NCBI GenBank assembly: GCA_003220055.1
Contig: QHRF01000083.1
Span: forward strand, 564-64,563
Source: Verrucomicrobiota bacterium
GTDB taxonomy: Bacteria > Verrucomicrobiota > Verrucomicrobiia > Chthoniobacterales > UBA10450
Direction: 5' to 3'
DNA length: 64,000 bases
The first letter of the stretch is position 1. Every line of letters starts with the position of its first letter. Of the stretch, positions 15,216 through 37,274 are shown piece by piece. Both the position numbers and the translations under genes were made by a program. The notes under the pieces are model-generated. The model did not search any database and was not told the origin of the DNA. It was given only the letters and a program-made list of their open reading frames with translations.

Positions 15216-17752
15216 AGGACGATGTTTACCAGCTTCTTCGGAATCACGACGACTTTACGAATTTGCTTACCCGCAGTGAGCCCCTGAATTTTTGGGAGGG
15301 CAAGCGCGGCGTTCTTGATTTCCTCTTCGCTCGCCTGGATCGACATCTTCATTCGGTCTCGCACTTTCCCATTCACCTGAATCACGATTTCGACTTCGTC
15401 TTCGACCAGGAATCTTTCGTCGTAACCCGGCCATGGCTGTTCCGTGATTTGACCAGGCAACTTCAACTTTTCCCAGAGCTCGGAACTCAAATGGGGCGCG
15501 AAAGGATTGAGCAAGACAAGAAAGGGTTGCATTGCCGAGATCGGTATCGTTTGGGCAGTGGTAAACGCGTTCACGAAAATCATCATCTGTGAGATGGCGG
15601 TATTAAATGAGAGAGACTCGATGTCGTCGGTCACCTTCTTGATCGTCGCATGCAGGATTTTCCGCTGCGCCTTGGTAAGATCGACATCTTGCACCGCGGG
15701 CGATAATCCCCATTGGCCCGCCTGGTTCTCCGACATCATCAACCGCCAGACTCGGGCAAGGAACCGGGCAATCCCTTCCACGCCGCGCATGCTCCACGGT
15801 TTCATTTGCTCGAGCGGGCCCATGAACATTTCGTAGCAACGAAACGCGTCCGCGCCGTATTGCTCGATCACATCATCCGGGTTGACGATGTTGCCGCGCG
15901 ACTTCGACATTTTCTGATTGTCTTCGCCGAGAATGATTCCCTGATTGACCAAGCGCTGAAACGGCTCCGGTTTCGAAACGTAGCGAAGATCGAAGAGCAC
16001 TTTGTGCCAGAAACGCGCGTAGAGCAGATGGAGCACGGCATGTTCAGTTCCGCCCACGTAAAGATCGACGCCGCCCGGTTTGTCGCCGCCCATCCAATAT
16101 TTCTCGGTCTTCTCGCCCACGAACCGTTGATCGTTTTGCGGATCGCAAAAGCGCAGATAGTACCAACACGAGCCGGCCCACTGCGGCATCACGTTTGTTT
16201 CGCGCACGGCTTTCTTTGAGTAACGAATCCAATCCTTCGCTTTCGCCAGTGGCGGCTCCCCGGTGCCGGTCGGTTTGTAATCTTCCAATGCCGGCGGAAC
16301 CACCGGCAGCTCGCTTTCACCAAGCGCGCGATGTTTAGGCCCGTCCGGCTCGGACTCCCACACGATCGGGAACGGCTCGCCCCAATAGCGTTGCCGTGAG
16401 AAAAGCCAGTCGTGCAGTTTGTAGTTGATCGCGCGTTTGCCGAGCCCGCGTTCTTCCAGCCAGGCGGTGATTTTGCGAATGGCTTCGCGGGACCGGAGAC
16501 CGTCGATGATCGGGGAATTGATCGCGATGCCGTCGCCCACGAAACCGATCGGTTCTTCATCTCCCGGCGGCTGAACAACCCGGCGAATCGGTAAATTGAA
16601 TTTGCGGGCGAACTCAAGATCGCGCTCGTCATGCGCTGGCACGGCCATGATCGCGCCGGTGCCATAGCCGAGCAGAACGTAATCGGCGATCCAAATTGGA
16701 ATTTTCTCCTCGTTGACCGGATTGATTGCGTAAGTGCCGGTAAAAACGCCGGTCTTTTCCTTCGCCAGCTCAGTCCGTTCAAGATCGCTTTTGCGGGCAG
16801 TCTTTTCCCGATAATCGCGGACGGCCGGCCATTGCTCTTCGGTCACGATCAAATCGATCAGCGAATGTTCCGGCGCCAGCACCATGTAGGTGGCGCCGTA
16901 AAGCGTGTCCGGTCGCGTGGTGAATACCCGGATTTTTTTGTCGTCGATCTTGAAATCGACTTCCGCGCCTTCGCTTCGGCCGATCCAGTTTCGCTGGAAC
17001 AATTTGATTCCTTGCGGCCAATCGAGGCCTTCGAGTTCATCAATCAATCGCTCCGCGTAAGCGGTAATGCGCAACATCCACTGCCGCATCGGCCGTCTGA
17101 CGACGGGAAATCCACCGACCTCGCTTTTGCCATCAACCACTTCTTCGTTCGCCAAAACGGTGCCAAGCTCAGGACACCAGTTCACCAGCACATCGGCAAC
17201 GTAAGCGAGGCGAACTTCATCCGGATTCTTGCCGCGATAAGTCTTGATCGGCTCGGCCTTGTTCGTTTTCGGATTGAACCACGAATTATAAATCTGGAGA
17301 AAAATCCACTGCGTCCATTTGAAGTAACGCGGATCGGTGGTGTTGATTTCACGCTGCCAATCATAGGAGAAACCGATCCGCTTCAGCTGCGATTTGAATT
17401 TGGTAACGTTCTCGCGGGTGGTGACAGCGGGATGCTGGCCGCTCTTGATCGCGTACTGTTCTGCAGGCAGGCCAAAGGCGTCCCAGCCCATCGGATGGAG
17501 AACATTGAACCCGCGCATCCGTTTGTAACGCGCGATAATGTCGGTGGCCGTATAACCTTCCGGATGTCCGACGTGCAAACCGGCGCCGCTTGGATACGGA
17601 AACATGTCGAGCACGTAGAATTTCGGTTTGGCCGCGTCGAAATTCTTCGCGCCCGGATTCGGCGCGTGAAAAATCTGGCGCTCGTCCCAGATCGCCTGCC
17701 ACTTGGGCTCAATCTGGTCGAACGGATATGGTTTGCGGCGCTCGCTGCTCAT
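15212..17752 (-). CDS. leuS: Leucyl-tRNA synthetase
   Basis: 846 aa with a HIGH-type motif (HVGHPEGY) and KMSKS. Confidence 0.97.
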
Positions 17753-17764
17753 TGAATATCTCTT

Positions 17765-17788
17765 AGGAAAGCAGGAAAGCAGGAAAAG
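17765..17788 (+). repeat. Tandem octamer AGGAAAGC x2 plus AGGAAAAG directly upstream of the rdgB start
   Basis: aggaaagc aggaaagc aggaaaag aaa ATG(17792), in the 39-bp leuS/rdgB divergent spacer. Confidence 0.6.
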
Positions 17789-17791
17789 AAA

Positions 17792-18388
17792 ATGGATTTG
17801 CTCTTAGCCACTCGCAATCCGAACAAGACGCGCGAATTTCGCGAATTACTTGGACAAGCATTCGGCGTGATCGATCTCAGCTCGTTTCCGGAAATCGCGA
17901 CCCCGGAAGAAGCGGGCCGGACATCGGAAGAAAACGCAATTTTGAAAGCGATCGCCGCGTCGAAACAATTGCCGAGCCTCGTCATCGCCGATGATTCCGG
18001 TCTCGAGGTCGACGCGCTCGGGGGGGCGCCGGGTGTTTTTTCAGCCCGTTACGCTGGCGAAAATGCTGGTGACGTTTCGAACGTCGATAAATTGCTTCGC
18101 GAGTTACGAAAGCAAAACATCGCGACCGAAAAACGATCGGCGCGATTCCGGTGCGTTATCGCGCTGGCGCAAAACGGAAAGTTGCTGGGCGTGTTTGAAG
18201 GTTTTGTGGAAGGAAAGATTGTCGATCCACCGCGTGGAAGCGCCGGCTTTGGTTACGATCCGATTTTCGAACCAAAGGGATTCGACCAGACCTTTGCCGA
18301 GATCACGCCTGAATCGAAAAACAAAATCAGTCACCGCGGACAAGCAATCGCAGCCCTGCGGAAAGCTCTCCGCGAGATTGAAAATTAG
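17792..18388 (+). CDS. rdgB: Non-canonical purine NTP pyrophosphatase (RdgB/HAM1 family)
   Basis: [54 protein letters not shown]. Confidence 0.9.
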
Positions 18389-24730: not shown

Positions 24731-25666
24731 TCACTTAACACCGGTGGCGAAGACGGTCTGGAACTGAGGGTTCTCCTTTTCGCGCGAGACCACGCTCACT
24801 TCGATGTCGCGAAAGCCGCCTTTTTCCAAAAGCTCATGCAATTTCACTTCGCTAAAGCCTAACCAGCGGTCGGCATAAAGTTCGCGCGCTCTTTCGAAGC
24901 GATGACTCAACAAGTCGAGGACAACGACCCGGCCGTTCCTTTTCAAAATGCGGTGGGCCGCCTGGACCGCTCGCTCGGGCTTGATTGCGTGATGCAACGC
25001 CTGACTCAACAGGACAAGATCGACACTGCCCTTTGTAACCGGCGGATCTTCCAGATCACCCAGCCGATACTCGAGATTTTTGAAACCATGTTTCTTCGCC
25101 AGCTTCGAACCGAACTCGACCATCTTTGGCGAGTTGTCGATCGCGATAACTTTACGCGCGCTCTTCGCCAGCAACTGGGAGAGTGTTCCTTCGCCCGCGC
25201 CAAGATCGACAATCGTCAGCCGTGGAACGAGCGAGATCAATGCGTGCGAGAGCGCTTTCCACGATCGTCCCGGGACGTAACTGCGACCGAACTTCCCTGC
25301 CAGTTCATCGAAATATTCGCGCGCTTTGTCCTGACGCTTGCGCAACGCGAGTTTCAGCGCCGTCCGGTCGCGGCCGGTTTCGGGAATTTCACGCGCGAGT
25401 GTCTCGATCACTTGTTGGACGCGGCCGCGCGCGCCATTGCGTCCTGCGGTTTTAGTCGCGCCGTAGTAAACATTCTTGCCCGCCCGGCGGCCTGCCACTA
25501 CCCCGGCGCGCTTCAATTGTGCGAGATGACTGGAGATCCGCGATTGGCCCATGTTCAGAATCTGCTGCAGCTCGGCCACGGAAAGCTCTTCCTCTTCCAG
25601 CAAGAGCAGCAGTCGCAGCCGGGTCGGATCAGCCAGTAGCCGCAATAAATTAATGGTTGACGTCAT
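24731..25666 (-). CDS. ArsR-family HTH fused to a SAM-dependent-methyltransferase-like domain (SahR-like regulator candidate)
   Basis: LADPTRLRLLLLLEEEELSVAELQQILNMGQSRISSHLAQLKRAG (ArsR wHTH) plus VDLGAGEGTLSQLLAKSARKVIAIDNSPKMV (MTase motif I). Divergent from metK-ahcY. Confidence 0.75.
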   Translation of the reverse strand: MTSTINLLRLLADPTRLRLLLLLEEEELSVAELQQILNMGQSRISSHLAQLKRAGVVAGRRAGKNVYYGATKTAGRNGARGRVQQVIETLAREIPETGRDRTALKLALRKRQDKAREYFDELAGKFGRSYVPGRSWKALSHALISLVPRLTIVDLGAGEGTLSQLLAKSARKVIAIDNSPKMVEFGSKLAKKHGFKNLEYRLGDLEDPPVTKGSVDLVLLSQALHHAIKPERAVQAAHRILKRNGRVVVLDLLSHRFERARELYADRWLGFSEVKLHELLEKGGFRDIEVSVVSREKENPQFQTVFATGVK

Positions 25667-25735
25667 CAGCGGTCTGAGACGATATATCTACATATCATGA
25701 TCGGTCAATATGTTGCTGTCAGCTTGACTGTTTTT

Positions 25736-25763
25736 GCCACTCGTCACTAGTCACTCGTCACTT
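25736..25763 (+). promoter_or_regulatory. Four in-phase heptads GCCACTc GTCACTa GTCACTc GTCACTt ending 7 nt before the metK ATG
   Basis: Read directly from the sequence; repeat starts at 25736, 25743, 25750, 25757. A TTGACT -35-like hexamer lies at 25724-25729. Confidence 0.6.
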
Positions 25764-25769
25764 CCTGTT

Positions 25770-26972
25770 ATGTCACGTCGCTACGTTTTCTCTTCCGAAT
25801 CCGTTGGTGAAGGTCACCCCGACAAAGTTTGCGACACGATTTCGGATGCCGTTCTCGACGCCTGCATTAAACAAGATCGACGCAGTCGTGTTGCCTGCGA
25901 GACCTACGCCAAGAGCAATATCGTTGTCGTTGGCGGGGAGATCACGATTCCGAATCTGGCTGACGACAAACCGCTCGGCGCGGTTCTTCCAATCAACAAA
26001 ATCGTCCGTGAGACCGTGCGCGAGATCGGTTACGTAAACGACGATGACGTCTTTCACGCGGATAAGATCGACATCCAGAACATCATCACCAAACAATCGC
26101 CTGACATCGCCCAGGGCGTCGATGCGCGCGCAGCCGATGGCAAAGAAACGGCCGAACAGGGCGCGGGCGATCAGGGGTTGATGTTTGGTTACGCCTGCGA
26201 CGAAACGCCGGAGCTCATGCCGGCGCCGATCATGTTTGCGCATCGGCTCGGACGCGAGCTCACTCGCATTCGCAAGAGCGGAAAAGTCGGCTGGCTCCGA
26301 CCGGACGCGAAATCGCAGGTCTCAGTTATTTACGAAAATGGCCGACCGATCGGCATTTCCTGCGTTGTTGTTTCAACGCAACACTCCCGCGACGTCAAAC
26401 ATTCCGAAATCCGGAGCTTCGTGATCGAAGAAGTGATCAAAAAAGTTTTGCCGAAGGAAATGTTAAGCGAGAGCACGCAATTTCTGGTCAATCCCACCGG
26501 CAATTTCGTGGTTGGCGGACCGCAAGGCGACACTGGTCTGACCGGCCGCAAGATTATTGTCGATAGTTACGGCGGAATGGGACGCCACGGCGGCGGCGCA
26601 TTTTCCGGAAAAGATCCGAGCAAAGTCGATCGCAGCGCGGCTTACATGGGACGTTGGGTCGCGAAGAACGTGGTCGCGGCCGGACTGGCATCGAAATGCG
26701 AAGTACAGTTCGCCTACGCAATCGGTCATCCCAAACCGCTCAGCGTCCATGTTGACACGTTCTGCACCGGCAGCGTCGACGAAGAAGCGATCGAGCAGGC
26801 GGTGCTGCAGACATTCAGCTTTAAACCGGCCGACATTATCGATCAGCTCGATCTGCTCCGCCCGATTTACTCAAAGACGACGAACTACGGTCACTTCGGC
26901 AAAGTCGACGACCCTGAGATCACTTGGGAAAAAACTGACAAGGCCGCCGCGCTGAAAAAGGCGGCGAAATAA
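25770..26972 (+). CDS. metK: S-adenosylmethionine synthetase
   Basis: [60 protein letters not shown] at 25770; the TTG at 25734 lies inside the repeat array. Confidence 0.95.
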
Positions 26973-26976
26973 ATTT

Positions 26977-28404
26977 ATGATCAGCACGAAGACAAACACG
27001 AAACAGCATTTCAAAGTTAAAGACATCTCGTTGGCCGACTTTGGCCGGAAGGAAATTTCGATCGCGGAAAAGGAAATGCCCGGATTGATGGCGATCCGCG
27101 AAAAGTACGCACCCCAAAAACCGCTCGCCGGTGTGCGTATCACGGGTTCGCTCCACATGACGATTCAGACGGCGGTATTGATCGAAACACTGGTCGATCT
27201 TGGCGCGAGTGTGCGCTGGGCTTCGTGTAATATTTTTTCAACGCAAGATCACGCCGCCGCGGCGATCGCCAAGGCTGGCGTGTCGGTGTTCGCGTGGAAA
27301 GGCGAATCACTCGAGGAATATTGGTGGTCGACGTATCAGGCGATCTCGCATCCGGACGGGAAAGGTCCGCAGCTCATCGTGGATGACGGCGGTGACGCGA
27401 CGTTGCTAATCCACAAAGGTTACGAGCTTGAAGAGGGCAGCGATTGGGCGAAAACAAAATCGGAGAACAGGGAAGAACAGGTTATTAAGGATCTGCTGCT
27501 CGAGATCCAACGAGATAACCCGTATCGCTGGCACGAGATCGCGAAAGATTGGCGCGGCGTTTCGGAGGAAACGACCACTGGCGTGCATCGCCTTTACAAA
27601 ATGCATCAGGAAAACCGGCTCCTCGTTCCGGCGATCAACGTCAACGATTCCGTTACGAAATCGAAGTTCGACAATCTCTACGGCTGCCGGCATTCGCTAA
27701 TTGATGGGTTAAATCGCGCGCTCGATGTCATGGTCGCGGGCAAAGTCGCGGTCGTCTGCGGTTATGGCGATGTCGGCAAAGGCTGCGCCCAATCACTCCG
27801 CGGTCAGGGCGCGCGTGTGGTCATCACCGAGATCGATCCGATCAACGCGCTCCAGGCCGCGATGGAAGGTTACGAGGTCACCACCATCGAAGACACGCTC
27901 GGCCGCGGCGACATTTACATCAGCGCAACCGGCAACACCGACGTGATCACGTTCGAGCATATGCAGCGGATGAAAGATCAAGCTGTCGTCGCAAACATTG
28001 GTCACTTCGACAACGAAATTCAGGTCGACGCGCTCAACGCCGGCAAAGGCGTGAAGCGGACCAATATCAAACCGCAGGTCGATAAGTACACGTTCCCGGA
28101 CGGCCACGAAATTTTCCTACTCTCCGAGGGCCGGCTGGTGAACCTCGGCAACGCGACGGGTCATCCGAGCTTCGTCATGTCGAATTCGTTCTCGAACCAA
28201 GTGCTCGCTCAATTGGATCTCTGGAAAAATCGCGACACCTACAAGGTCGGCGTTTACGTCTTGTCGAAGAAGTTCGACGAAGAAGTCGCGCGCCTGCATT
28301 TGAAAAAAATCGGGGTCAAACTGACCAAGCTCAGCAAAGCACAAGCCGATTATCTCGGCGTGCCAATCGACGGTCCGTTTAAATCCGAGCACTACCGTTA
28401 TTGA
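26977..28404 (+). CDS. ahcY: Adenosylhomocysteinase
   Basis: 475 aa: [29 protein letters not shown] site [35 protein letters not shown]-terminal ...PFKSEHYRY. Confidence 0.95.
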
Positions 28405-28855: not shown

Positions 28856-29401
28856 TTAATTGGATGCAGCGTCACGCTGCTCGACAAACTTTTCACCGTT
28901 CCAGGTAAACTTGTGGAGAACTTTTCCGCTCTTATGACTGCGGACGAGAATCGTGCGGCCTTGTCGCGGCAGCTCAAATTGCAAGTCTTCATATTTTGAT
29001 TCGTATTCGCCAGAACTCCACCTGTCGCCGATCGGAAAAACTCTTCGAGATGCTTTGTGCATCTTGCCGTCCGCTCCGAGCTCGAAAAAGTCCAGGGTGA
29101 CCGAATCATCCCCTTCAAGTTCACCGGAGCAAAGCGCGAGGAGCGAACGTCCGTCTCGATAACGAAACAGCGCGACCTGAAACGATGGCTGAGCTCCATC
29201 GCCGGCGATGCTGATGTAGCCATTTTGCCTGTCGATCACTTGCGCGTTGCCTAGCCAGGCGCGCGGCGGAGCTTCCAAAGTCTTGTCTGGCAGCAACAGA
29301 AAATAATCCACCACCGTCATTTTCTTTTCGTCCGCGGCGCCGAGCGCGAACGGGAGACAAAGACCGAGCGCCAGGACAACAAAGATCGACAGTCGTTTCA
29401 T
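28856..29401 (-). CDS. Hypothetical secreted protein
   Basis: Signal peptide MKRLSIFVVLALGLCLPFALGAADE. 181 aa with no recognisable motif. Confidence 0.65.
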   Translation of the reverse strand: MKRLSIFVVLALGLCLPFALGAADEKKMTVVDYFLLLPDKTLEAPPRAWLGNAQVIDRQNGYISIAGDGAQPSFQVALFRYRDGRSLLALCSGELEGDDSVTLDFFELGADGKMHKASRRVFPIGDRWSSGEYESKYEDLQFELPRQGRTILVRSHKSGKVLHKFTWNGEKFVEQRDAASN

Positions 29402-29428
29402 CTCAGCCGCGGACCGTGGCTGAACTTA

Positions 29429-30109
29429 TCAACTCACTGTCACGCTCACGGCGTCGCTCGGCTGGCCGATTTCTTTGCCGTTCATCACGGCGCGGGCGGT
29501 GTATTTGAGTTCGCTTTTGCCGGGCGACGTGTCGATCGCGGGTGTCCGGAAAAAGAAACCGACTTTTTGCGGAGATTTGTCGCCTTTGCCTTGGCGATAC
29601 AGATTGATCCCGGAAACGCCGCCACCGGCTTTACGGAACGGGATCGTGACAAAATTTCCGGTCTGGCGCGCGCGACCGAGCTCGGCCTTGTAATTCGCGG
29701 CCTCAAATTTTCCGATGTCGATTTTGAGTTTGTTGCCGATGTCTGTCGTGAACTTCGCGTGGGCTTTGATCCGTTCGACGCGCGCCTGCCGGCGCGTGTC
29801 GATTCCGGGCCGCACCGGAGTCGGCGCGCTCGCGCCCGCGGGAAGATCGACATAATCGCCGGAAGATTGTCCGCTTAGAACCGCATTTGCGGCATGACCG
29901 GGATCGGCATCGAGGTCGGGACCGAGCGTGGTTAAAATGTGCACGGCGTAGTTCGAATCGTTGACCGCGTTCGTGATCTCGGTTTCGCTGAATCCGAGAT
30001 CCTTTCCGGCTTTCGGAAACTCTTTGGCGAAATTGCTATACCAGTCGATGCGACCGGCTCGATCAGCAGGAAAATAGGATTTGCTCATACGTGGCAGAGG
30101 TGTTGCCAC
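29429..30109 (-). CDS. Hypothetical protein (beta-rich, Ig-like-looking C-terminal region)
   Basis: 226-aa ORF co-directional with the SET-domain gene. No motif recognised. Confidence 0.55.
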   Translation of the reverse strand: MATPLPRMSKSYFPADRAGRIDWYSNFAKEFPKAGKDLGFSETEITNAVNDSNYAVHILTTLGPDLDADPGHAANAVLSGQSSGDYVDLPAGASAPTPVRPGIDTRRQARVERIKAHAKFTTDIGNKLKIDIGKFEAANYKAELGRARQTGNFVTIPFRKAGGGVSGINLYRQGKGDKSPQKVGFFFRTPAIDTSPGKSELKYTARAVMNGKEIGQPSDAVSVTVS

Positions 30110-30646: not shown

Positions 30647-30652
30647 TAGAGA

Positions 30653-30736
30653 AGTGACGAGCGACAACTGGCGAGTGACAAGAGAAAAAATTGCTGCTCT
30701 TCTTACTCGTCACTCATCGCATGTCACTGGTCACTA
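30653..30736. promoter_or_regulatory. Imperfect palindrome built from GTCACTn heptads, filling the SET/MFS divergent spacer
   Basis: Left arm AGTGACg AGCGACa ACTGGCg AGTGACa (30653-30680), 12-nt centre aaaaaattgctg (30685-30696), right arm CTTACTc GTCACTc ATCGCAt GTCACTg GTCACTa (30702-30736). The 11-mer CTCGTCACTTC (minus strand, 30661-30651) is identical to metK leader 25754-25764. Confidence 0.6.
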
Positions 30737-30740
30737 TCAA

Positions 30741-32048
30741 ATGAAGTCACGCCCGGCCGCGGTCGTTTTTATTTTCATCACCGTGATGCTCGACATGCTC
30801 GCGCTCGGTTTGATCGCTCCAGTGTTGCCGAAGCTGGTCCTGAGTTTCCTGAACAACGACATGACACGCGCGGCGAATTGGAATGGCATTTTTCTGACTG
30901 TATTCGCCGCGATGCAGTTTCTCTTTTCACCGGTGATCGGCGTTTTGTCCGATCGATTTGGCCGACGGCCGGTCCTTCTCCTTTCCAGCCTTGGCCTCGG
31001 TCTCGACTACATCGTCATGGCAGTCGCCCCCACCATTGGGTGGTTGTTTCTCGGTCGCATCATCTCCGGGATTACCGCTTCCAGCATTCCCACTGCCTTC
31101 GCTTACATCGCCGACGTAACTCCAAAAGAAAAGCGCGCCGGCGCCTTTGGCATGATTGGCGCAGCGTTTGGTATCGGTTTCACGCTGGGGCCGGCAATCG
31201 GTGGATTGGTGGGAAACACGAATCCGCGGCTGGCATTTTGGGTGGCCGCAGGTTTCAGTCTGACCAACTGGCTCTACGGGTTTCTCTTCGTCCCGGAATC
31301 ACTCGCGCCCGAGAAGCGAAAGGAATTCTCGTTAGGCCGCGCCAATCCAGTCGGCTCGCTCGTTTTACTGCGCTCACATCCGGATTTGTGGAAACTCGCT
31401 ACGATTCAATTTCTCGCCTACGTCTCACATGAAATTTTCGCCATCTGGGCGCTCTACGCCATTTATCGTTTTGGCTGGGATGCGTGGAGCATCGCCAAGT
31501 CGCTCTTTGTCGTCGGCGTCTGCACTGCGGTGATCTCCGGCGGATTGACGGGACGAGTTGTGGCCTGGTTGGGCGAGAAGCGCACTCTTTACATCGGCCA
31601 GTTTTTTGGCGCCGTCGGCATGCTCATCGCCGGTCTCGCCCGAAGCGGCGCCGTTTACGTGGCGTCAATCCCGGTCATTTCGATGTGGAACATTTCCTTT
31701 CCCGCCGCCCAGGGAATCATGACGCACCATGTGAGCGAGCGCGAACAAGGCGAGTTGCAAGGCGCCATCGGCAGTTTGCGCTCGATCGCGTTCGTCATCG
31801 GACCATTTCTATTTTCATGGACGTTTGCCTGGTTCATCGATCCGAAACATTCGTTTCAATTGCCCGCCGCCGGGTATTATCTCGCAGCCGCATTGCTGTT
31901 CACCGCGATGTTCATGGCGACGCGTATCAAACAACCGCAATTTGCCGCGGCATCGACGGTGTCCCCCGGCGTTCCCGACGTCGTGCCTCCGGAAGGCCTG
32001 ACTTCAGGCACCGTCGCGCCAATGATCGAGCCCAAAGAAAACATTTGA
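30741..32048 (+). CDS. MFS transporter (TetA/drug:H+ antiporter-like)
   Basis: 12-TM-type protein with an MFS motif-A-like GVLSDRFGRRPVLLLS. ATG at 30741 (MKSRPAAVVFIF). Confidence 0.85.
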   Translation: MKSRPAAVVFIFITVMLDMLALGLIAPVLPKLVLSFLNNDMTRAANWNGIFLTVFAAMQFLFSPVIGVLSDRFGRRPVLLLSSLGLGLDYIVMAVAPTIGWLFLGRIISGITASSIPTAFAYIADVTPKEKRAGAFGMIGAAFGIGFTLGPAIGGLVGNTNPRLAFWVAAGFSLTNWLYGFLFVPESLAPEKRKEFSLGRANPVGSLVLLRSHPDLWKLATIQFLAYVSHEIFAIWALYAIYRFGWDAWSIAKSLFVVGVCTAVISGGLTGRVVAWLGEKRTLYIGQFFGAVGMLIAGLARSGAVYVASIPVISMWNISFPAAQGIMTHHVSEREQGELQGAIGSLRSIAFVIGPFLFSWTFAWFIDPKHSFQLPAAGYYLAAALLFTAMFMATRIKQPQFAAASTVSPGVPDVVPPEGLTSGTVAPMIEPKENI

Positions 32049-32498: not shown

Positions 32499-32575
32499 TG
32501 TAGGGCAACCGCTTCTGCCAGTCCGGCGTCGGACTTGTCGCTTTTCCAGCCGGCAGGCGAGGCGCCTGCCCTACA
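32499..32575. repeat. REP-like element (TGTAGGGCA...TGCCCTACA outer stem with inner hairpins)
   Basis: Outer 9-bp inverted repeat. Inner GGCAGGCG-agg-CGCCTGCC (32552-32570) and GTCCG-gcgt-CGGAC. Related to 37251-37274. Confidence 0.65.
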
Positions 32576-32582
32576 AACAGAA

Positions 32583-37241: not shown

Positions 37242-37250
37242 GAAGAAAGT

Positions 37251-37274
37251 TGTAGGGCAGGCGCACCGCCTGCC
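37251..37274. repeat. REP-like hairpin TGTAGGGCAGGCG-cac-CGCCTGCC
   Basis: The GGCAGGCG/CGCCTGCC stem is the same as at 32552-32570. Lies in the divergent spacer between the DAAO-like and mqn genes. Confidence 0.6.

Follow-up and report, generated by a model that had tools for sequence, protein, structure and literature searches.

A palindrome of GTCACT heptads between divergent SET and MFS genes of a Verrucomicrobiota bacterium and its relation to repeats that abut start codons

The SET/MFS spacer and the metK leader

We analysed a 64-kb window (64,000 nucleotides of contig QHRF01000083.1, assembly GCA_003220055.1) from a Verrucomicrobiota bacterium of the order Chthoniobacterales, in which a 94-bp spacer (30647-30740) separates two divergent genes, one encoding a SET-domain protein and the other a transporter of the major facilitator superfamily (MFS). 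The initial annotation had described this spacer as a palindrome built of GTCACT heptads, and its sequence and coordinates, including the two arms, the central stem, the loop and the distances to both start codons, agree with that description (Table 1). On the minus strand the SET-side array reads GTCACTc GCCAGTt GTCGCTc GTCACTt and is followed by ctcta and the start codon, the array ending 6 nt before the SET ATG (30646). On the other side, the final hexamer of the MFS-side array ends 5 nt before the MFS ATG (30741). The central stem, formed by cgagtgacaagag and ctcttcttactcg, is paired at 11 of 13 positions and encloses a 12-nt loop (30685-30696). The palindrome arms as a whole (30653-30684 and 30697-30728) are 32 nt long each, 75% complementary and 12 nt apart, and the palindrome contains no open reading frame (ORF). 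As RNA, either strand of the spacer is predicted to form one long imperfect hairpin of about 30 bp, with a fold energy of -36.6 kcal/mol for the plus strand (z -4.8) and -39.1 kcal/mol for the minus strand (z -5.4), which none of 200 shuffled sequences equalled.

A period-7 scan of both strands of the window found arrays of this kind at three places only, upstream of metK, SET and MFS, all of them in the sense orientation and ending 7, 6 and 5 nt before the respective ATG. The chance occurrence of such arrays was simulated with mononucleotide shuffles of the window: three arrays with at least 19 of 24 matches were observed against a mean of 0.003 in 300 shuffles, and three against none when at least 21 of 24 matches were required. 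The lone hexamer GTCACT is not enriched in the window (21 observed, 14.7 expected) and the signal therefore resides in the phased repetition. An 11-mer, CTCGTCACTTC, is common to the SET and metK leaders, as had been noticed before. The claim that metK, SET and MFS share one cis motif at the same distance from their starts stands as regards the motif and a spacing resembling that of a Shine-Dalgarno (SD) sequence, but the metK ATG lies at 25770 and not at 25771, and the array stands 7 nt off. The metK array has no inverted partner; taken alone it is predicted to be unstructured and falls below shuffled sequence in structure (z +0.75). The sense strand of the arrays contains 12-15% G, compared with 25 +/- 6% in other upstream regions.

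No sigma-70-type promoter was detectable in the SET/MFS spacer by consensus scan and no terminator-like site was found in it, the palindrome being flanked by tctcta and atcaa. Curated Rfam models gave no match at E values up to 1 in 24-33 kb and none at the gathering score in the whole window, and a riboswitch for S-adenosylmethionine (SAM) or S-adenosylhomocysteine (SAH), or another known RNA family, was rejected as an explanation of the spacer. We also rejected an SD mimic: the position of the arrays fits, but their sequence is not complementary to the CCUCC anti-SD, and the window shows no SD enrichment upstream of its ORF starts (6% against a background of 6%). The 16S rRNA tail reads AUCACCU, and GUCACU resembles this tail itself, whereas an SD would be its complement.

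The metK gene is divergent from a gene encoding a SahR-like fusion of an ArsR helix-turn-helix (HTH) domain with a SAM-methyltransferase domain. SahR is an SAH-responsive repressor that binds a 20-bp palindrome and has a core regulon of sahR, ahcY, metK, metH and metF (PMC4239095). In the sahR-metK spacer of the window, separate from the heptad element, we found a 31-bp block (25681-25711) that is kept in every sahR-metK spacer long enough to show it, the most diverged included. No second copy of this block occurs in the window even when 3 mismatches are allowed, and it is absent from the SET/MFS spacer. We propose this block as a candidate operator of the SahR type; it is probably the SAM/SAH control site of metK-ahcY, in preference to the heptad array.

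GTCACT arrays in related genomes and in other phyla

The window was compared with close strains, with 7 contigs carrying five chosen SET homologues, and with 80 metagenome loci recovered via the SET protein (468 kb in total). The 80 loci contain 37 GTCACT arrays, all at SET (22 loci), metK (9) or MFS (6), and none at about ten other syntenic genes. The metK and SET arrays persist over lineages whose SET proteins are just ~81-86% identical, and lineages that carry the SET array mostly carry the metK array too. The orthologous spacers nevertheless mostly lack the motif: the SET-side array is absent from 58 of the 80 and the MFS-side array from 74, and other small palindromes are found instead. 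Three forms of the spacer could be distinguished. The full palindrome occurs in the window clade (93-100% SET identity) and in loci L212 (81%) and L207 (82%); the SET-side array stands alone in ten loci with 80-86% SET identity; and most remaining loci have no heptads, the spacer holding at least one GC-rich hairpin followed by CTACAAC or CTACAG (or preceded by the complement). The MFS-side arm was found solely as the inverted partner of a SET-side arm; it occurs in the window clade and was recognised by eye in L207 and L212 as well. The loop sequence of the window is shared with the L212 lineage, and the palindrome is therefore old. Among 10 strains with an identical SET protein the number of units is unchanged at either locus. 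The single change of unit number seen among 13 window-clade loci is in the SET leader of L143 (~101-128), where the array is exactly 14 nt (two heptads) shorter than in the other 12. A phase-variable simple sequence repeat (SSR) was ruled out on the grounds that unit number does not change among near-identical strains.

The metK array is conserved in the window clade and in several other lineages, the heptad pattern being kept while the flanking spacer diverges. One related locus, L009 (6689-9303), was aligned with window positions 25770-28404: its SET protein is 100% identical and its AhcY 97% identical, whereas its MetK is only 70% identical (392 against 400 aa). These values indicate that genomes which are otherwise nearly identical differ by a replacement of the metK allele, with the upstream heptad array retained. 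In other lineages, other tandem repeats end at the metK ATG, either a CTTCAAC-type 8-mer with an inverted GTTGAAGC partner or TACTTTC heptads.

The window also contains another family of short start-abutting palindromes, represented by a GC-rich hairpin element, GGCAGGCG...CGCCTGCC-CTACAA, with two copies (GGCAGGCGnnnCGCCTGCC-CTACAA), both sense-oriented and 6-8 nt before an ATG. Kindred hairpin-CTACA(A/G) elements fill the SET/MFS spacer in most relatives. In several relatives a small cassette separates the metK stop codon from the ahcY start. In one type, a PDDEXK_3 ORF is enclosed by inverted 9-mer arrays, CAGATTTCG and AAATCTGCG; in the other, a 23S_rRNA_IVP (PF05635) ORF is enclosed by the inverted heptads AAGTTTT and AAAACTT. 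In these cassettes the left arm ends 3-4 nt before the cassette ATG; the right arm runs straight into the ahcY ATG in the IVP cassette (L159) and lies ~23-25 nt away from it in the PDDEXK_3 cassettes. On the sense strand the lineage-specific repeats at the metK start (CTTCAAC-type and TACTTTC) and the AAAACTT heptad contain no G at all, and AAATCTGCG contains 2 in 9. A GTCACT palindrome with such an ORF inside was found in one locus only, L015 (Ignavibacteriaceae), where inverted arrays of GTCACT and ATCACT units flank an IVP ORF; among the matches listed in the cross-phylum scan below (120 loci), no other GTCACT palindrome encloses an IVP or PDDEXK_3 ORF.

In the rRNA intervening sequence (IVS) of Coxiella, inverted repeats at the ends form a stem of ~28 bp that is cleaved by RNase III, and the loop may or may not carry an S23p ORF (PMC4990558). 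The elements described here resemble the 23S rRNA IVS (S23p/23S_rRNA_IVP) in having a long terminal-repeat stem round a loop with or without a small ORF, and in relatives the IVP and PDDEXK_3 ORFs sit between inverted tandem arrays. They differ in lying between genes in mRNA, not in rRNA helices, and in having arms of tandem short repeats; moreover, the copy in the window is ORF-less and its arms are just 75% complementary. By analogy, the cassettes have the architecture of intervening sequences, here within an mRNA operon, and appear selfish, and GTCACT palindromes without an ORF, among them the SET/MFS spacer, resemble empty copies of IVS-like elements.

A scan for GTCACTNGTCACTNGTCACT, a perfect triple heptad, with one genome per species returned at least 120 loci, and the counts in this paragraph and the next are those among the matches listed. 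Acidobacteriota account for 42 loci, 21 of them in Pyrinomonadaceae; the other hosts belong to Chloroflexota, Bacteroidota, Ignavibacteria, Gemmatimonadota, Planctomycetota, Verrucomicrobiota and others, and long simple tandem runs were found in Scytonema and Shewanella. No homologue of MetK, AhcY, SET or MFS occurs among the downstream genes of the 120 loci. By Pfam, the products encoded downstream include MutS2, an AMP-binding enzyme, an M20 peptidase, RecG, OpcA, a D-serine-dehydratase-like enzyme, an anti-sigma factor, an enoyl-CoA hydratase, an SDR, an SIS protein, a CDP-alcohol phosphatidyltransferase, RNase HII, CheB, a LepA-like GTPase, RsmE, a thiolase, an NtrC-type regulator, cytidylate kinase (Cmk), superoxide dismutase (SOD) and cysteinyl-tRNA synthetase (CysRS), so that the functions are unrelated (repair, lipid, translation, signalling and more). 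The Pfam domain boundaries imply that the ATGs next to the arrays are true starts. One array, from a Candidatus (Ca.) Udaeobacter contig, has an amine-oxidase-like gene on one side and a hypothetical gene on the other.

The Acidobacteriota arrays mostly have 3-5 units, their 7th base alternates between C and T, and 75 of the 83 arrays in these loci are outside called genes. Twenty-four are sense-oriented and precede a gene start by at most 40 nt; for 17 of these the distance is 5-12 nt (mode 6). Arrays at a short distance from the start have no SD, and several of those at 11-19 nt have an SD-like GGAG or GGGG in between. About half of the arrays in Acidobacteriota loci have an inverted partner array 8-64 nt upstream, and there are 28 cases of the arrangement 5'-(AGTGACR)n-loop-(GTCACTY)n-3' against 5 of the opposite order; the pyrimidine-rich arm therefore faces outward to the flanking gene, as in the SET/MFS spacer. 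Many palindromes occupy the entire stop-to-ATG gap of co-directional genes, which leaves no room for a separate promoter. These palindromes have stems of 25-33 bp (-38 to -60 kcal/mol) and match no bacterial RNA family, giving only sub-threshold hits to generic microRNA (miRNA)-precursor models. In Blastocatellia loci we counted 149 period-7 arrays and at most 6 at each of the periods 8-12; further heptads, such as ATTCACG and GTCAGTT, occur in Acidobacteriota loci, and the Pyrinomonadaceae copies carry a T-rich tail, G-Y-T-T-T-T. SD enrichment is small in the Pyrinomonadaceae loci. The initial annotation had considered that the motif might be a common dispersed repeat unrelated to gene starts: it is indeed dispersed before unrelated genes in other genomes, but the arrays do abut starts. 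As a side observation, three Pyrinomonadaceae loci (L084 6810-6917, L102 786-871 and L125 4181-4304) contain more long, near-perfect palindromic hairpins, unrelated to GTCACT, for which the sole matches, all sub-threshold, are eukaryotic miRNA-precursor models; long hairpin elements are abundant in these genomes.

Possible nature and action of the repeat

The explanation we tentatively favour, while giving it somewhat less than an even chance, is that the spacer is one ORF-less copy of a dispersed palindromic tandem-repeat element that provides G-poor, unstructured leaders together with a hairpin and acts on RNA. The repeat is probably a general leader or hairpin element and not a SAM-specific switch, because many soil bacteria have the same kind of repeat just before the starts of unrelated genes. 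It belongs to a class of short tandem arrays and palindromes abutting start codons in low-SD soil bacteria, the hosts being Pyrinomonadaceae and other Acidobacteriota, some Verrucomicrobiota, Chloroflexota and others. The family is orientation-specific and start-abutting, old in the clade of the window yet dispensable there, and not tied to a function outside this clade. In the proposed mechanism, two outward-facing GTCACTN arrays flank a short loop and each outward arm would be the last ~30 nt of the leader of its gene, G-poor, pyrimidine-rich, unstructured and SD-less, ending 5-7 nt before the AUG, in the position normally taken by an SD. If both arms were on one transcript they would pair into a stem of ~30 bp, comparable to the terminal stems of rRNA intervening sequences, which might serve as an RNase III-type substrate or as a transcriptional insulator; it would keep adjoining transcription units apart or process them, so that the downstream gene is left with a short leader. 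Within the clade, the SET-side array is old, the MFS-side arm is its inverted partner, and the metK array would be a solo, better-conserved copy of the same repeat family ~5 kb away.

We infer transcription of the arrays, processing of the stem and any effect on translation from the fixed distance of 5-7 nt to the AUG, the G-poor sense strand shared by unrelated repeats, the unstructured state predicted for lone arrays and the intra-operon copies. Where copies lie between cistrons or around operon ORFs, a promoter or an operator is implausible. Several results weigh against this explanation. SET and MFS being divergent, both arms can be on one RNA only if transcription begins inside the neighbouring gene. 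The spacer diverges within the window clade at 0.065 per site against 0.09-0.10 at four-fold sites (~65-70%), and its arms are no more conserved than its loop (0.067 against 0.062), and constraint is weak. Among the mismatches of the palindrome arms on the sense strand, G.U (24) is not in excess over A.C (34), and the hairpin is therefore not visibly selected as sense RNA. The confinement of the arrays to metK, SET and MFS in 468 kb of Chthoniobacterales DNA would be explained equally well by a specific regulon or by local copying, the array of the Ca. Udaeobacter contig points away from its nearest downstream gene, and the link between GTCACT and intervening sequences, resting on L015, is thin.

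The shared motif had been taken at the outset as a sign that SAM synthesis is co-regulated with a SAM consumer and a transporter. The restriction of the arrays to these three genes in the 80 related loci agrees with this proposal, but elsewhere they precede unrelated genes, most orthologous spacers are without the motif, sister lineages have other repeats at the metK start, and a SahR-like regulator and a conserved block lie beside metK. From these sequence comparisons SAM-linked co-regulation of metK, SET and MFS would be a minority possibility, and nothing found requires it. It would be expected if the heptads served as DNA sites to which an oligomerising repressor, comparable to the ribbon-helix-helix protein omega/ParB of plasmid pSM19035 or to MetJ, binds with one dimer on each 7-bp unit, whether direct or inverted. 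Such a repressor would cover the leaders and the 94-bp spacer and repress the three genes together, possibly in response to SAM. In its operators and parS sites, omega (ParB_pSM) recognises 7-bp WATCACW units, of which at least 2-4 contiguous ones are needed for high-affinity binding and full activity (PMC9499535). The arrays described here likewise consist of 3-5 contiguous non-palindromic 7-bp units in both orientations with a TCAC core, close to the omega sites AATCACT and AATCACA (PMC9499535), although the unit is (C/T)GTCACT and not WATCACW. The 11-mer common to the metK and SET arrays, in which the inter-unit bases also follow largely the same pattern, and the frequent co-occurrence of the two arrays in a lineage are consistent with an operator, as are the 8-mer tandem arrays at metK in sister lineages, whose period recalls metboxes; and since both promoters must fit in the 94-bp spacer, a protein bound to the arms would occlude them. 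We nevertheless consider an operator array distinctly unlikely. The same arrays precede unrelated genes elsewhere and lie between cistrons or around operon ORFs, where operators make little sense; a fixed distance of 5-7 nt to the ATG and a G-poor sense strand over unrelated repeats are unexpected for sites in double-stranded DNA; no sigma-70-type promoter is detectable in the spacer; and a domain scan of 10 neighbouring proteins found neither a ribbon-helix-helix nor a MetJ domain. The sites are absent from most orthologous SET/MFS spacers, the inner units decay freely, and metK already has its SahR-like regulator and candidate operator. Omega arrays also differ in having 7-10 units that are unpositioned relative to the start codon, whereas the present arrays are chromosomal and without recognisable promoter overlap. 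MetJ recognises tandem arrays of 2-5 short boxes in front of met genes, metK among them, but a MetJ metbox array was ruled out, the period being 7 and not 8 and the unit GTCACTN being unrelated to the tandem 8-bp AGACGTCT-like boxes. The SahR operator differs as well, being a 20-bp palindrome of which the counterpart in the window is missing from the SET/MFS spacer.

It is somewhat more plausible, though still rather unlikely in our view, that the repeat has no function and arose by polymerase slippage and fold-back copying, or is the relic of a selfish element resembling a miniature inverted-repeat transposable element (MITE), a repetitive extragenic palindrome (REP) or an IVS, and is merely tolerated near starts, with local copying across 5 kb accounting for the motif shared by metK and SET. 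Heptameric SSRs are over-represented in bacterial intergenic DNA and no function has been found for them (PMC4692102), and the patchy distribution among orthologues with other palindromes in place, the exact two-unit deletion at one locus, the weak constraint on a spacer whose arms and loop evolve alike, the symmetric mismatches of the arms and the ORF-bearing, selfish-looking versions in relatives all fit this explanation. Against it stand the orientation bias (28 against 5) and the sharp peak 6 nt from the ATG among the matches listed, the C/T alternation of the 7th base, by which the units are not fresh identical slippage copies, the constancy of unit number in 10 near-identical strains, and the persistence of the metK heptad pattern while its flanks diverge and even through the allele replacement in L009 (MetK 70%). 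REPs, bacterial interspersed mosaic elements (BIMEs) and MITE-like elements are similar in being short, dispersed, extragenic imperfect palindromes that vary among close relatives, occur within operons and form mRNA hairpins, but REPs are typically located 3' of genes and are not tandem heptads; they run to hundreds of copies in a genome and have an associated RAYT transposase. A role of the arrays as promoters or leaderless-start elements, providing -35-like and -10-like hexamers (TTGTCA, GTGACA) from which transcription would begin at the ATG or close to it, appears very improbable. Five of six positions agree with TTGACA both in TTGTCA, found at unit junctions, and in GTGACA of the opposite arm, the spacing GTGACA-N17-TAACTT in a Pyrinomonadaceae palindrome (L087) fits a promoter, and the absence of an SD would be expected if leaders were short. 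However, no unit offers the TA of a -10 box, the arm-to-arm distance of 8-64 nt gives no constant geometry, a -35-like TTGACT before the metK array shifts its spacing between orthologues, and the consensus scan found no promoter in the SET/MFS spacer. A sigma-70 promoter built from the arrays was rejected for the lack of a match in the spacer, the variable arm spacing and the unconserved spacing of the -35-like hexamer at metK.

The closest known counterparts of the family are the heptameric intergenic SSRs, such as GGGAATC in Xanthomonas, GGGGAYT in Nostoc and the cyanobacterial STRR heptanucleotides, whose function is unexplained (PMC4692102). These repeats prefer about four units, lie in non-coding DNA near ORFs of all functional classes, have the pyrimidine- or C-rich strand as the sense strand when upstream, form occasional inverted stem-loop pairs and vary in length and sequence between close relatives (PMC4692102). 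The GTCACTN arrays share the tandem 7-nt units (4-5 in the window, mostly 3-5 in related loci), the non-coding location without preference for a gene class, the pyrimidine-rich sense strand upstream of genes and the inverted pairs. They differ in that GTCACTN is unable to form a G-quadruplex, that the hosts are Verrucomicrobiota, Acidobacteriota and other soil phyla, that the arrays abut the start codon at a sharp 5-7 nt, and that the outward-facing palindrome is the rule, whereas the Xanthomonas repeats are under-represented between divergent ORFs. We consider the GTCACTN family to be a new version of these known but functionally unexplained repeats. Literature searches for the repeat sequence and for heptanucleotide repeats in Acidobacteria brought up no paper mentioning these arrays.

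A bolder interpretation, which we think improbable, is that start-abutting heptad arrays (GTCACTN and its sister repeats) are an undescribed cross-phylum signal of low-SD soil bacteria that sets translation initiation or mRNA fate, and that GTCACT has been kept specifically at metK and the SET operon in Chthoniobacterales, coupling SAM synthetase to a SAM consumer. The arrays might then act as a periodic single-stranded platform to which the ribosome or a conserved RNA-binding factor attaches, or form stems that RNase III processes to near-leaderless mRNAs. If this were true, the coupling of SAM synthetase to a SAM consumer in Chthoniobacterales would be genuine. Start-site choice and the organisation of operon transcripts are poorly understood in abundant low-SD soil lineages (Ca. 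Udaeobacter-like Verrucomicrobiota and Pyrinomonadaceae), and a repeat of fixed orientation at the SD position before many unrelated genes in several phyla offers a testable handle on start choice. The heptad palindromes also connect the long-unexplained excess of bacterial intergenic heptameric repeats with hairpin-bounded IVS-like cassettes. For annotation they call for caution, as a motif common to adjoining leaders need not define a regulon.

Flanking genes and other features

Domain searches agree with the gene identities proposed initially for SET, MFS, MetK and AhcY (Table 1). The MFS protein scores 292 bits against the NCBIfam tet_MFS family, under its cut-off of 475. A SET protein identical to that of the window is indexed in 93 blocks of an assembly collection, and the contigs examined are from soil metagenomes and metagenome-assembled genomes.

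Table 1. Positions of the genes and repeat elements of the window and of the cassettes in related loci
Feature	Position	Strand	Remarks
SahR-like gene (ArsR HTH and SAM-methyltransferase fusion)	24731-25666	-	Domain search
Candidate SahR-type operator, 31-bp block	25681-25711	.	sahR-metK spacer
metK-leader heptad array	25736-25762	+	GCCACTc GTCACTa GTCACTc GTCACT; ends 7 nt before metK ATG 25770
MetK gene	25770-26972	+	Domain search
AhcY gene	26977-28404	+	Domain identification; metK-ahcY junction of 4 nt (26973-26976)
SET-domain protein gene, 169 aa	30137-30646	-	Pfam PF00856, E 4e-11; start codon agrees with orthologues
SET-side heptad array	30653-30680	-	4 units; plus strand AGTGACg AGCGACa ACTGGCg AGTGACa
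Palindrome centre	30681-30701	.	Inner stem extension and 12-nt loop aaaaaattgctg (30685-30696)
MFS-side heptad array	30702-30736	+	5 units CTTACTc GTCACTc ATCGCAt GTCACTg GTCACTa
MFS transporter gene, 435 aa, TetA-like (DHA1-type)	30741-32048	+	Pfam MFS_1, E 4e-49
GGCAGGCGnnnCGCCTGCC-CTACAA copy 1	32552-32576	+	ATG 32583
GGCAGGCGnnnCGCCTGCC-CTACAA copy 2	37250-37274	-	ATG 37241
Cassette at metK-ahcY junction, L135	13440-13990		Related locus
Cassette at metK-ahcY junction, L181	8660-9230		Related locus
Cassette at metK-ahcY junction, L159	3980-4530		Related locus

Downstream of SET, on the minus strand (28856-30109), lie two conserved genes of 219 aa and 181 aa without a Pfam family, which accompany SET in most relatives and may share an operon with it. 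No tRNA genes were found in the 64-kb window. Another short repeat next to start codons, the 8-nt tandem repeat AGGAAAGC (x 2.8; 17765-17786), lies in a 39-bp divergent spacer between a minus-strand gene ending at 17752 and a plus-strand gene starting at 17792.

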